From Pseudogymnoascus verrucosus (taxonomy: Eukaryota): a DNA stretch of 64,000 nt. Numbering within the stretch: the stretch's first letter is position 1; every line of letters starts with the position of its first letter. Shown here piece by piece: positions 45,258-49,913 of this stretch. The notes under the pieces are model-generated. The model was given only the letters and a program-made list of their open reading frames with translations, had not been told where the DNA came from and searched no databases. The DNA lies in the NCBI GenBank assembly GCA_001662655.1, contig KV460244.1. One strand, given 5' to 3'. Both the position numbers and the translations under genes were made by a program.

Positions 45258-47003
45258 TTATGGCGTTTGCATTAGTGGAGTGACGCCTAGAGCCAGGTCT
45301 GAGTGCGCAACGAACTCGCTGAACCACCAGGAATTTTGCAGATCATACCCATTTAAGGGACCGCCATGGCTATCCCGTAATGGAAAATCCACCGACGGGT
45401 ACATGCTTAGCATATCTGAATGTTTCTTTATATCAGCTTCTCTTCGCTTTTGATGCAGCTGGAGCAGGGTACATGCCGCAGTGGCTGCTTCCCGCGTCGC
45501 TTCTGTCTGGTACGCATCGTTGACAGCAATAACGCAAGCCAGGGACTCATTCAGGAGTGCGAACGACTGCACAGTGTCTATAACAAGCAGCGTGCATATC
45601 GCCTGAAAAGGGATATTAGCCACATGATGCCATGGAAGGCCCGCGGCAACGCTCGAGCGAACTGCCTGGATACTGTTTTTAATCAGACCGAGAACCTTGT
45701 TCATGACATCGTCCGGGACCTCTAGTTTTGAAGAATGAAGCCTGCGATGAATGCACAGCATCAAGTTGCATTGTGCTAGAACAGACGGCGGCTCTGTATG
45801 GGTTCGATCCAAAACCTCCACAAGTGCTGCAACAAGGCTGCCCATGCTTAGTCCGTTGGCCGGGTCCAGGTCCTGTGAGTATGGCAGAAGATCTAACAGC
45901 TCCGTCGTGTATTCGCCTGGCTGCGCAGATGGCGGAACAGTGTCAGCATTCGGTACCAACACACGATTCCGACCGAGGTCATACGACATCCATGTGTTTA
46001 GATGCTGCGCTACACCAAACACCCTCCTCCGAAGATGGACATCTCGAGGGTCTTGAGGTAGGGAGAAGGCGCTGCCATGGTCGGCGCGGCTCATTAATCC
46101 CGCTGCATCGATGATATGGAGGGTAGTGCAACTTGCTAACCAAGCCTCTTCTGGCTTCGCGGTGAGCCGTAGATACACAGTGCGCAGTAACCAGGCAGTA
46201 GCGCTATGTAGTGATGGAGGATCCGCAGTTGACGGGTCTAGTAGGCGCTTAGCAAGTGCAACAAGACTCAGCTCAGCCGCCAGATCCTGAGTGCTGGAAA
46301 AGAGACAAGCGAGAGCGACGACGCCACACAAAAGTGCGTCTTCCGCGCTGGAACTGCCCTGCCCATCCCATGTGCTTGATATGCTTCGGAGCAGCATGTC
46401 TTTGCCAATGAAACCATAACATGGGTGGACCTTTTCGAAGTAGACCGTGGCCAGATGCCGCATCTCTAGTTCCGACAGAACGGCTGGTAGCGTCTCCTGG
46501 TGCACAGGGCCCGCTGTTTGCCTTTCTCCGAGAAACAAATTCCATGCCAGCATTCGCATCGGAGAAACACTCCGATCGGACGATTCGAGCGTAATCGTAA
46601 GCAGGCGTGCAAAAGCTGCACCAGAGTTGCTCTCAGCAGATCGCAAGTATCCGTCTGGGTCTTGGTGCTCTTGGGCTTGTTGTTCTTGGCCTTGTTGGGG
46701 ATGCTGATGCTGGCGCTGGCACCGCCCCGATGGCAGATTGTATTGCTGCTGGCGCTCCAGCCGCTGTGGCAGTATTCCTGCGGGAACCGACGGACTCGCT
46801 TCTCGCGTGATTACGGTCTGCGATCGACCTGCGCCTCTTTGAGGTTGCCGATTACGAGGCGTTGAGCGATAGGAGCAATCGTATCCGTATCCGAGGCAAA
46901 TGTTGCACGGGCGACCTCCGTCACATTTCCTTTTGCGCTCTCGGCACGGATCGCATGCAATGCGCAGTCGCTGGCGGTGTGTCTGTCTACCTTCAACGTT
47001 CAT
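45258..47003 (-). CDS. Zn2Cys6 transcription factor, Rdr1-like, intronless
   Basis: ACDPCRERKRKCDGGRPCNICLGYGYDCSY, ESNSGAAF, YFEKVHPCYGFI, W.SYDLGR, PWHHVANIPFQ. Confidence 0.88.
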   Translation of the reverse strand: MNVEGRQTHRQRLRIACDPCRERKRKCDGGRPCNICLGYGYDCSYRSTPRNRQPQRGAGRSQTVITREASPSVPAGILPQRLERQQQYNLPSGRCQRQHQHPQQGQEQQAQEHQDPDGYLRSAESNSGAAFARLLTITLESSDRSVSPMRMLAWNLFLGERQTAGPVHQETLPAVLSELEMRHLATVYFEKVHPCYGFIGKDMLLRSISSTWDGQGSSSAEDALLCGVVALACLFSSTQDLAAELSLVALAKRLLDPSTADPPSLHSATAWLLRTVYLRLTAKPEEAWLASCTTLHIIDAAGLMSRADHGSAFSLPQDPRDVHLRRRVFGVAQHLNTWMSYDLGRNRVLVPNADTVPPSAQPGEYTTELLDLLPYSQDLDPANGLSMGSLVAALVEVLDRTHTEPPSVLAQCNLMLCIHRRLHSSKLEVPDDVMNKVLGLIKNSIQAVRSSVAAGLPWHHVANIPFQAICTLLVIDTVQSFALLNESLACVIAVNDAYQTEATREAATAACTLLQLHQKRREADIKKHSDMLSMYPSVDFPLRDSHGGPLNGYDLQNSWWFSEFVAHSDLALGVTPLMQTP

Positions 47004-47059
47004 CGTGCTTCGCTGCAGTTGCAGCAGCGACTTTCCCGTAGCTAACGTGTTTTATCGGC

Positions 47060-47420
47060 CCGTGCACGGCCTCGGCTTGTGCGCGATAATCGTCACCACA
47101 GTACCGATCATGGAACGTCTCGGCCACCGCATTCTGACACTCAGCGTTATATTCCTCTTCCTCGCCGCGTATTCCTTTGGTATTATTCCTCTCCGAAGTC
47201 CTCTCCTACAACATCCGTGCCACAGGCCTTGCACTTCAGGGTATCGCCATCAAGTCGTGCAGCGTACTCGTCACTATTGCGTTACCGTACATGACGCGAG
47301 ACACTGGCTGGAAGGCTTACATTTGCGGACGCATCTTGGAGCATCTGTTTTGGCTGTACATATATTTCTAATGGGTGGAGACTAAGGACAAGATACTAGA
47401 GGAGATTGATTCCCAAGCTG
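47060..47420 (+). pseudogene. Sugar-porter MFS transporter C-terminal remnant
   Basis: MERLGHR, SEVLSYNIRATG, GWKAY, F*WVETKDKILEEID (PETKG..LEE motif), with frameshifts. Confidence 0.7.
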
Positions 47421-47726
47421 TCGACAATGGAAGAGCGTCTTGGCATTGTTGGAAAGTAACAGCCGCACAGTTGGGAAACGATCTGTCGTGGTGCCGAACT
47501 GTACGTGTGCAATGTATGATATTCATAGGCCCGTTGGCGGGCTTGTTATGGGGAGAACAAAATCCCATAGTTGCGTATGCTCGTGTGTTGGAGACGGGAA
47601 TCAAAGTACTTAATGTTTAGTATATATTTTTCCGAACAAAACGATGAGGGAAGGCCACTCTTTGCTTTTATTTGAAGGGACAAAATCCTAATCTTGTTAT
47701 GACGCAATTGAGACACTCCAGCAAGA

Positions 47727-48815
47727 CTATGACCCTGGCAGGCGCCTGATAACATCACAGGCCTCTGTTTGCAAACGGTTCACAAGCACGCTCGACGATT
47801 CCACGCTATGCACGAGCCCAATTGCAGCACCAGCGTACGTAGCCAACCTTCCATCTGGGCCCCAGCCGCTATCCCCAGCTTGAACAGCATCATCGTGAAG
47901 GCGCTTGAGCTCGTCGAATGGCACGCCCGCTTGATGGTCATGCCAGCTTTTGTTGACGATACCGCGTGGACTGTATCGTTCTGGCCATCCTTTCGTGCCT
48001 CGGAGTTGGTTGTACAGGGTGGTACGGATTGTGTGACTGGCTCCGTCGGTAGCCCGAACAATCTCCTGTTGATAACCCTTGCTGATGCGGGCCTCAGTCG
48101 AGGCCAGGAAGCGAGTTCCTAAGGCTACGCCTGTGGCACCAAGAGCAAGGGCGGCAGCCACCCCTCTGCCATCCGCTATTCCTCCAGCTGCGAATAGAGG
48201 CATGTTGGAGCGATGTACGGCATCTGCAACTTCAAGAAATAACGTCATGAGTCCCATCGCACCCTCAGCTGTGCCATGGCCACCTGCCTCCGCGCCTTGG
48301 ACAACGAGCACATCCGGGCGAGAGCGGCTGTTTGCGGCTTCGAGAGATTCCTGGAGGGTCCCGACCTGTATCCAGACCTGTATGCCCGGGGAAGCCTTCC
48401 GCAGAGCATCGGTCCACTCATCCAGCTCTGGCTGCCCGTTACGAGGCGCGAACAACCACGCTGCGCATGGCCGGTGCTCTCGCACAGCCCGGGTTGCAGA
48501 GTCAATATCACCGTTCCACAGCTGGAATCCCACTCCGACTGGTAGAACAGTGTCGAACATTGATGAGTTGAATGTGGCGGTTGTTGCGGCATTCATTAAC
48601 CTCCGCGCCATGGCTAGATCGGTGATAGTATCGTCTGGCTTCGCGCCTGGGCCAATAAACCCTAGCCCGCCTGCCCGGGAGACGGCGAGGGCAAGCTCTG
48701 GGCCAGACATGACACGCATAGGTGCAGCAACAATGAACGGCGCAGTCATCCATGGGAAGCTGTTTAGCACACGTCTTGCCGTGTTGGTCTTCAGTGGTGC
48801 TAGGAGGGGACTCAT
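47727..48815 (-). CDS. Nitronate monooxygenase / 2-nitropropane dioxygenase-like FMN enzyme
   Basis: APM...LALAVSRAGGLGFIG, VVQGAEAGGHG, AAGGIADGRG.AAALALGA.GV..GTRF. Confidence 0.9.
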   Translation of the reverse strand: MSPLLAPLKTNTARRVLNSFPWMTAPFIVAAPMRVMSGPELALAVSRAGGLGFIGPGAKPDDTITDLAMARRLMNAATTATFNSSMFDTVLPVGVGFQLWNGDIDSATRAVREHRPCAAWLFAPRNGQPELDEWTDALRKASPGIQVWIQVGTLQESLEAANSRSRPDVLVVQGAEAGGHGTAEGAMGLMTLFLEVADAVHRSNMPLFAAGGIADGRGVAAALALGATGVALGTRFLASTEARISKGYQQEIVRATDGASHTIRTTLYNQLRGTKGWPERYSPRGIVNKSWHDHQAGVPFDELKRLHDDAVQAGDSGWGPDGRLATYAGAAIGLVHSVESSSVLVNRLQTEACDVIRRLPGS

Positions 48816-49148
48816 CTGTGCATGATTGTCAGCTGGTTTTGCCCGGATCTGGGCCGTGACAGGTCACAAGGTAAAAGTTGGCCGTACCTTGTTAGTTCAG
48901 AACGCAGAAGGAATAAAAAGGCTGGAGTCGATTGAAGTCGAATTGTCAGTTGAGCTCGGGGTTATATCTTCTTGGTCCAGAAGACAGGCGGCTTGGGCGA
49001 CAGTGCACATGCGGTGACCGTTGCTCGCCAACGGTCGGCCGTCTACCGCTCTGTTTTCGCCCCCCGCATGATCCGCAAGATCCGCCGCATGCCGCCCGCA
49101 GCCTCCGATGAAAGGAGTCGCACATCGAGGATGTTTCTTCTCGTGTGC

Positions 49149-49290
49149 AAAGGACTCTTGAACCGTGATTGCCAACACAACATCACAGTTCATCATAATA
49201 CTTTTGTATTCTGTGCTACACTACTTCTTGACAGAAGTGTTATGATTGAACTGTGATGTTGTGTTGGCAATCACGGTTCAAGAGTCCTTT
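49149..49290. repeat. Long inverted repeat (hairpin): 44-bp perfect arms plus an imperfect inner stem
   Basis: AAAGGACTCTTGAACCGTGATTGCCAACACAACATCACAGTTCA and its exact reverse complement ending at 49290. Confidence 0.92.
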
Positions 49291-49468
49291 CGAAACGAGA
49301 TGGCACAATCTGTACAAATATTCTGGCTTCAAATCAGCTGGCAGCTTGCGACCGAGCCTCCAACAAAAGTTGATGATTTTTCGCTTAAATAATCTCTATA
49401 CATATATAATCGGACCTTGTACAGCACGCTTGCCGCTTCGCAGCGCGATACGCGGGCCGATAATTTTT

Positions 49469-49913
49469 CTACAATTTCCCATTCAAAATTTGTGCTTCTC
49501 CCAGCCCAAAACTCCAATCTTCAGACTTGTTCTCAACACATGAGATCACTAGATCAGTCTTCTCTAGCCCACATTCGGTCGATAGATGGTCAGCGAGAGC
49601 TGCAAACATGTTCTGTTTGTCCTCGGTAGTTCGGCCCTGCTGGAAGACCTGAACAACAACTAAGTCATCAGTCCTTTCAAAACCTAGATTCGTGTCGTCG
49701 CATATGATCACGTCTTTCTCATGTTGCGTAATAATCTAGGACCTTGGCCTCCTGAAAAATTCCGGTTCGACGTGCACGATGAATTACCTGATATCGGTCC
49801 CTAGGAGGAGCCTTAACCTTCTGTAACATCACAGTCTGGACTGTGTCTGCTAGGGTGCGCAACTGAGCGGGTGACCGCCTCCCTTTGATCACGTCGATTT
49901 TTACCAAAGGCAT
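49469..49913 (-). CDS. Tautomerase-superfamily protein, malonate semialdehyde decarboxylase (MSAD)-like (2 exons)
   Basis: Met-Pro start, DRYQ|IITQH, DTNLG..R, QQGR, VEN..EDWSFGLGEAQIL.G.L, matching the MSAD family pattern. Confidence 0.85.

Follow-up and report, generated by a model that had tools for sequence, protein, structure and literature searches.

Introduction

3-Nitropropionate (3-NPA) is a lethal toxin of food and forage that is produced by fungi and legumes. How its breakdown starts is known, and the locus described here, which lies in a 64,000-nucleotide stretch of contig KV460244.1 from Pseudogymnoascus verrucosus (assembly GCA_001662655.1; this whole stretch is hereafter the window), offers candidates for the second enzyme, for a regulator and for binding sites. 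It combines a Zn(2)-Cys(6) transcription factor (TF), a flavoprotein of the nitronate monooxygenase (NMO) family and a tautomerase of the malonate semialdehyde decarboxylase (MSAD) family. Activity of a fungal NMO on propionate-3-nitronate (P3N) was reportedly described by Francis in 2012. In Metarhizium, a preprint reports that NpaC consumes 3-NPA and releases nitrite, its authors concluding that malonic semialdehyde is the product; mr-NpaC is only 34% identical to the Neurospora crassa enzyme yet oxidises 3-NPA (10.1101/2024.02.22.581660). For bacterial 3-NPA catabolism (pnoA, pnmR), a published account gives nitrite and 3-oxopropanoate as products and involves a flavohaemoglobin (PMC9552603).

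The second enzyme belongs to a superfamily in which function is less easily read from membership. According to a superfamily survey, eukaryotic tautomerases fall mostly in the cis-CaaD and MIF subgroups, and members of a subgroup may not catalyse the reaction of its founder (PMC5818174); gene context therefore matters. Each enzyme considered here is already known, and what is new is their combination and its apparent double origin. The initial annotation knew of no description of the route in fungi, and we likewise found no account of an NMO–MSAD link, nor any publication connecting the two enzymes, in the literature searched, most subscription papers and bioRxiv supplements lying outside that search.

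A Candidate Module of Three Genes

All three genes lie co-oriented and intact on the minus strand of the window, with open frames and the expected domains, as had been claimed at the outset (Table 1). The TF combines a binuclear cluster (PF00172, Zn_clus, 38.5 bits) with the fungal TF middle domain (PF04082, Fungal_trans, 44.6 bits), both above cut-off, and so belongs to the Zn(II)2Cys6 family. Because its orthologues adjoin or are fused to NMO gene models in other fungi, it is a putative dedicated regulator of the NMO. For the tautomerase, a 52-nt intron was the sole choice among 16 open splice options that yields the 130-aa protein identical, letter for letter, to a database entry filed under P. 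verrucosus (P0001). In the 30-Mb genome, PF14552 matches nothing but the tautomerase. The NMO query found 10 matches, and four of these, at ≥42% identity, belong to the subfamily of the NMO. Assuming about 10,000 genes, we estimate the chance of a single MSAD adjoining any NMO-family gene at roughly 0.2%. The NMO leader intron is skipped in a contig of run X18 (depth 2), which joins 48815 to 48888 with CT..AC ends; if X18 is RNA, which is a guess, this is a weak hint that the NMO gene is transcribed in a relative.

Table 1. Features of the locus and its surroundings (positions in the window).
Feature	Position	Strand	Basis or remark
Zn(2)-Cys(6) TF, 581 aa, single exon	45258..47003	-	PF00172 and PF04082 above cut-off
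NMO-family FMN flavoprotein, 362 aa	47727..48815	-	PF03060, E 7e-35
NMO 5' leader intron, 72-nt GT..AG, ending directly before ATG	48816..48887	-	X18 contig and sequence
CGG direct-repeat array, CGGA-N4-GCGG x3, upstream of NMO; candidate Zn2Cys6 site	49064..49107	-	Pattern search
1,110-bp segment with whole tautomerase gene, missing at this locus in a close relative that keeps TF and NMO	49097..50206		X11
Inverted repeat, 61-nt arms, 90% complementary, 54-nt loop	49132..49307		Between MSAD 3' end and NMO promoter
Tautomerase exon 2, 88 aa and stop	49735..49469	-	PF14552, E 1e-26
Tautomerase intron, 52-nt GT..AG	49787..49736	-	Splice options; homologues break at same place
Tautomerase exon 1, Met-Pro start, DRYQ	49913..49788	-	PF01361; alignment to MSADs
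Second CGG direct-repeat array, upstream of tautomerase, inverted relative to NMO array	50216..50247	+	Pattern search
Further single CGG site	50797-50809	+	Pattern search
Further single CGG site	ending at 50926	-	Pattern search
Tc-toxin/RHS-like gene	~5236-10528	-	TcdB_toxin_midN, FG-GAP and RHS matches
KP4 killer-toxin-like secreted protein	33147-33635	+	PF09044, E 9e-37
NmrA-like gene	35879-36943	+	
WrbA-like flavodoxin	40341-41082	-	
Tandem repeat CTCACCC(C/T)G x10, nine-base unit	44311-44399		Downstream of TF
Inverted 10-base counterpart of the nine-base repeat	44668-44704		
SDR	51335-52270	-	
NAD-dependent epimerase	53415-54658	+	
Second NMO-subfamily gene	~54916-56022	-	42% identical to trio NMO
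LINE-like retroelement frames	58836-61126	-	By eye from translation

Our proposal, in which we place middling confidence, is that the TF senses and induces, that the NMO turns P3N into nitrite and malonate semialdehyde, and that the MSAD turns the latter into acetaldehyde and CO2. The Zn2Cys6 factor and the NMO-family flavoenzyme would form an old, repeatedly retained regulatory pair, which the MSAD would have joined in some lineages, that of the window included. The factor would sense the nitronate or its product and bind the CGG arrays upstream of both enzymes. By analogy with other fungal NMOs, the FMN enzyme would use O2 to act on P3N, the anion of 3-nitropropionate, and the Pro-1 enzyme, judging by the chemistry of its family, would act without NAD+ or CoA. 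The nitrite would pass to the genome's nitrite reductase, exons of which were found. The MSAD would be a useful but dispensable sink, since the genome also has MMSDH.

The tautomerase carries each of the residues ascribed to it by the initial annotation: Pro-1, the Asp of DRYQ, QQGR and the WSFG.G.A..L.G.L tail. The N-terminal Pro-1 and the double beta-alpha-beta fold of its predicted model (pLDDT 86) place it in the MSAD family. Its closest solved relatives, by sequence and by predicted fold, are the MSADs of FG41 (3MJZ) and P. pavonaceae (2AAG), which are also the top Foldseek matches (TM ~0.76). Asp-37 and Arg-75/76 correspond to D39 and R77 when Met is counted, and none of the 17 aligned homologues departs from either. 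Positions 72-73 are Gln-Gln, so that the protein shares Gln-73 with FG41 but has neither Thr-72 nor Arg-73. From the four-residue MSAD set that was tested, three are kept; at position 123 the window's clade has Ile, and the other printed fungal homologues have Phe. By analogy with these relatives, and with gene context in support, the tautomerase would decarboxylate malonate semialdehyde.

The NMO falls within a broad subfamily of ascomycete proteins (1,020 matches at E <= 1e-60 among 8,000 scored candidates, 120 of them listed). It probably resembles the class II NMO of N. crassa, which the subfamily may include. It retains Met33 and the AGGH His180, and an alignment of 50 relatives shows this His in every one. 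Activity on P3N is plausible by analogy with the fungal enzymes introduced above.

Gene Context of Bacterial MSAD Homologues

Inositol catabolism produces malonate semialdehyde, and we examined what surrounds bacterial relatives of the tautomerase. The genome scan covered the best 80 of 228 confirmed MSAD relatives, all actinobacterial and 55-65% identical, and in 54 of these 80 loci (40 of the 55 at full length) iolB, iolD, iolG or MMSDH lay within 6 kb of the MSAD orthologue. Such neighbours, taken with the inositol route that yields malonate semialdehyde, support this compound as the substrate of the tautomerase.

A second line of evidence came from metagenomes, where the best 80 of at least 465 confirmed MSAD relatives were scanned. 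Three low-GC, Bacteroidota-like loci (L060, L062 and L067) form one MSAD clade (99/93), and in all three a class I-type NMO lies directly upstream of the MSAD, on the same strand and with a gap of <30 bp. The order at L060 (1977-4438) is a divergent LysR gene, the NMO and the MSAD. At L062 (305-3038), whose cluster includes a Pedobacter protein, a flavohaemoglobin precedes the NMO (E 2.5e-65 to the P. aeruginosa NMO 4Q4K) and the MSAD; at L067 (1-549) the last 43 NMO residues are what is visible upstream (E 5e-8 vs 400 bp). These are three of 73 non-fungal loci counted; in a recount, 24 of 72 had more than 1.2 kb on both sides. The Bacteroidota-like NMOs belong to a subfamily distant from that of the fungal NMO, so the pairing looks to have arisen independently of that in fungi. 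For testing the pathway, these operons are cleaner material than the locus in P. verrucosus. The assignment of malonate semialdehyde to the tautomerase by the initial annotation has in this way gained support that is comparative in kind, from the inositol loci and the three NMO loci.

The actinobacterial homologues (L092-L171) deserve mention in their own right. They occur in myo-inositol clusters (iolB in 44 of 80 loci, iolD in 42), often with or replacing MMSDH, and make up an IolK-like branch in Actinomycetota. We found no paper on IolK, malonate semialdehyde and inositol together. Plasmids yielded 219 records of MSAD homologues, and NMO was absent from the five annotated regions among six examined; 31 plasmid records of class I NMOs were found. 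No relative was found in the viral contigs searched. Fusions of NMO and MSAD were also sought and rejected: there were none among 150 listed representatives of 2,246 or among the other proteins compared, and two apparent candidates, P0283 and P0041, proved to be NMOs with mis-called leaders.

Conservation in Fungi

Locus tags, fused gene models and contigs of equal size, all of them proxies, served to infer linkage in fungi. Consecutive tags for TF and NMO occur in four Pseudogymnoascus strains and in Epicoccum nigrum. The two are fused in models from Stagonosporopsis and Polychaeton, with the gene order reversed relative to the window, and lie on contigs of equal size in 13 further pairs. The whole trio recurs as V499_04352/3/4 and on one 5,798-bp Logan contig. 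In Elasticomyces, TF and MSAD are two accession numbers apart in six record pairs, and in another lineage a TF (66%) and an MSAD (90%) are on contigs of equal size (43,967). A different association was seen in Bipolaris, where the models P0164, P0301 and P0302 join the TF orthologue to an MFS transporter, which may be another partner.

Shared Promoter Arrays

Direct repeats of CGG with a period of 9-10 bp are present in both enzyme promoters. Such spacing is the usual geometry of Zn2Cys6 sites. In the 64 kb, seven of nine occurrences of CGGA-N4-GCGG are upstream of NMO or MSAD, at 49064-49107 or 50216-50926, as are four of five occurrences of CGGA-N5-CGGA. With one mismatch allowed, a 13-mer occurs three times against 0.06 expected. 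The shared arrays, as candidate sites, may reflect co-regulation by the TF. They are suggestive only, because the pattern was picked after two of its sites had been seen and because the 13-mer occurs eight times genome-wide against three for a reversed control. The other sites read are in or near unrelated genes, and no regulon emerged among them. Of the regulated module envisaged by the initial annotation, it is co-regulation that these sequence motifs support.

Evidence Against the Module and Rival Explanations

Several observations, together with the post hoc choice of pattern and the genome-wide counts just given, weigh against a dedicated three-gene route. One comes from X11, a DNA run mostly ~94% alike to the window that keeps TF and NMO: an 8,914-bp contig (depth 26.5) joins 49096 to 50207, so there is no MSAD at the locus. 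This gap may be a loss in the X11 relative or a gain in the window lineage. A contig of run X12 skips 49097-49207, and both runs, X11 and X12, break at position 49096; the hairpin at 49132-49307 occurs once in the genome. No MSAD of V500 or V502 turned up in the cluster members read. In V501 the MSAD model sits on another contig than the other two genes, possibly because the assembly is broken there. No NMO was found in seven metagenome MSAD loci set apart as fungal or intron-bearing (L012-L015, L018, L036 and L064), of which only L014 has more than 1.2 kb on both sides. The downstream neighbour of MSAD in Cladosporium and L013 is a PLD-like gene, and Curvularia kusanoi carries its NMO and its MSAD on separate contigs. 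Indeed, most fungal MSAD copies with visible flanks, those of the fungal sister clade included, have no adjoining NMO.

Other observations bear on the remaining links. In Elasticomyces it is the numbering that implies a gene between TF and MSAD. TF and the listed NMO are apart or on different contigs in Aaosphaeria, Paraphoma and Fusarium nematophilum, which paralogues may explain. No NMO lay near MSAD in the 80 actinobacterial loci, and MMSDH, which scores above cut-off in the P. verrucosus genome, could itself remove the semialdehyde. The window MSAD also departs from its homologues at two conserved positions, with Ile at Phe/Tyr-123 and Val at Phe33. The MSAD is an accessory member beside TF and NMO, whose pairing is the stable part. 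Conservation of the trio across fungi holds in part: the pair is kept in several Dothideomycetes, whereas the MSAD is patchy, absent in X11 and often unlinked.

These patterns of linkage agree with a rival explanation that we regard as rather unlikely overall, in which TF and NMO form a general unit for nitroalkanes or nitro-oxidative stress, on the models of M. oryzae NMO2 and the B. cinerea NMO-flavohaemoglobin pair. The MSAD would then serve other sources of semialdehyde (beta-alanine, propionate or inositol) or be a passenger between promoter halves. In X11, where the array segment at 50207-50250 is kept with three differences, the two CGG arrays meet to form a single dyad, as a passenger would allow; fungal NMOs are also reported to act in nitro-oxidative stress (PMC9323177, PMC9324006). 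This explanation fits poorly with the independent NMO–MSAD operon in three of three Bacteroidota-like loci and with TF and MSAD lying two genes apart in six records of Elasticomyces, a member of a different fungal class. Chemistry speaks for the P3N route as well, in that among common nitronates only P3N would be expected to yield malonate semialdehyde.

We consider it improbable that the PF03060 protein is a reductase of the NAD(P)H:quinone or enoyl type, like PA1024 or FabK, and that the module serves some other redox or detoxification route together with the SDR, epimerase and quinone reductase genes around it. The question arises because the protein has none of the class I hallmarks QAPMxG, Asn strand, SFxFG and AGGHRG, all of which L060 and L062 have. 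Class I (PA4202 type) was judged by four motifs and their active-site Met, Asn, His, Tyr and Lys, the patterns being taken from the alignment to 4Q4K rather than from the defining paper; of these residues the window NMO has just Met33 and His180. Lacking them, the window NMO is not filed as class I, and its P3N activity is therefore something that we infer. Its top sequence and fold matches are FabK structures, and its nearest solved folds, FabK and others, are ≤27% identical. Annotation in this family can mislead, as a 2026 preprint illustrates with PA1024, an annotated NMO that is a quinone reductase. A WrbA-like flavodoxin, an SDR and an epimerase within 8 kb, and an SDR adjoining MSAD in two other strains, would also suit a reductase. 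Against it, the FabK enoyl-ACP reductase model TIGR03151 scores 107.5 bits, far below its curated cut-off of 453.1; an MSAD neighbour would make no sense for a reductase; and the subfamily may include the N. crassa class II NMO.

There is a slim chance that a P3N route once worked here and that the MSAD is decaying in this lineage, leaving a TF–NMO detoxifier, as Ile at Phe/Tyr-123 of the active-site wall and Val for the near-invariant Phe33 (both limited to the window's clade), the missing gene at the X11 locus and the single-copy hairpin beside the breakpoint could indicate, but the reading frame and splice sites are undamaged, Pro-1, Asp-37 and Arg-75 are still present, and three near relatives have an exon 2 of 95-97% identity.

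Origin and Implications

A midpoint-rooted tree groups the fungal MSADs in a single clade (100/99; 34 of 78 rows, 130 columns), and the closest database matches of this clade are actinobacterial. Sequence comparison suggests a bacterial ancestry of the MSAD and horizontal transfer. Outside the genus, and among the matches listed, the window's MSAD, NMO and TF are all closest to Dothideomycetes (Extremus 89%, Ascochyta 89% and Bipolaris 69%, respectively), and similarity to the Ascochyta model reaches into the NMO leader exon. Transfer between fungal classes, or contamination of those Dothideomycete assemblies, is possible. A broader reading of the proposed P3N route, which we hold more tentatively than the route itself, is that NMO and MSAD make up an unrecognised cofactor-free branch of 3-nitropropionate breakdown, assembled twice from different NMO subfamilies (class I in the Bacteroidota-like bacteria, a non-class-I enzyme in ascomycetes) and moved between fungal classes.

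If true, the MSAD would gain a natural role other than in degrading fumigants and inositol, and the conserved Zn2Cys6 protein at its side would serve fungi as a dedicated sensor of nitronates. An MSAD neighbour would also flag P3N-active NMOs, which would aid substrate assignment in a badly annotated flavoprotein family.

Surroundings of the Locus

The surroundings of the trio are rich in redox and detoxification genes (Table 1), among them the flavodoxin, the SDR, the epimerase and the NmrA-like gene. In two other strains the SDR neighbour of MSAD is seen as fused models (P0488 and P0489). The second NMO-subfamily gene, 6 kb from the trio, has a close paralogue beside an SDR on contig C77 (L004), and no CGG array was seen upstream of it. 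Farther away, the Tc-toxin/RHS-like gene consists of several separate frames, either broken or split by introns, and the LINE-like frames comprise an endonuclease-type open reading frame and another upstream of it. The nine-base repeat downstream of the TF and its inverted counterpart, ~300 bp off, are possibly the ends of a small mobile element.

Comparison With Known Systems

Compared with the MSADs of P. pavonaceae 170 (2AAG) and coryneform FG41 (3MJZ) and with the IolK type, the window tautomerase has the same beta-alpha-beta fold and a length of ~130 aa. With the two solved enzymes it has Pro-1, Asp-37, Arg-75, Trp-114 and Phe-116, along with Leu-128, in common, at 35-42% identity. It is unlike known MSADs in being fungal and intron-bearing, with Gln-Gln-Gly-Arg at 72-75 and Ile at 123. 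Its setting differs too, as it adjoins an NMO, whereas known MSADs adjoin a chloroacrylate dehalogenase or iol genes.

The NMO shares the PF03060 FMN barrel and its AGGH His with other fungal NMOs, namely the N. crassa class II enzyme and NpaC of the Metarhizium npaABC cluster. Unlike that cluster, the window has a downstream decarboxylase and a regulator in place of the biosynthesis genes npaA and npaB. Among the window's open reading frames listed or scanned there is no CreE-like amine oxidase (NpaA) and no CMD-family decarboxylase (NpaB), and PF13454 gave two weak matches in the genome, on other contigs, NpaA itself not having served as query. In B. cinerea, the divergent Bcfhg1–NMO pair is likewise a small fungal unit built on an NMO and is co-expressed under nitrosative stress, but the partner is a flavohaemoglobin, and the part of that paper available to us mentions no MSAD or Zn2Cys6 gene (PMC9324006).

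The locus resembles P. aeruginosa nmoR-nmoA and bacterial pnoA/pnmR in that a local regulator adjoins the NMO in both (PMC9552603). The window regulator is of the Zn2Cys6 type and the bacterial one is LysR, and the window NMO is not class I. The fate of the carbon product would differ as well: in the bacterial routes a dehydrogenase takes 3-oxopropanoate to acetyl-CoA (PMC9552603), whereas a cofactor-free decarboxylase is proposed for the fungal locus.

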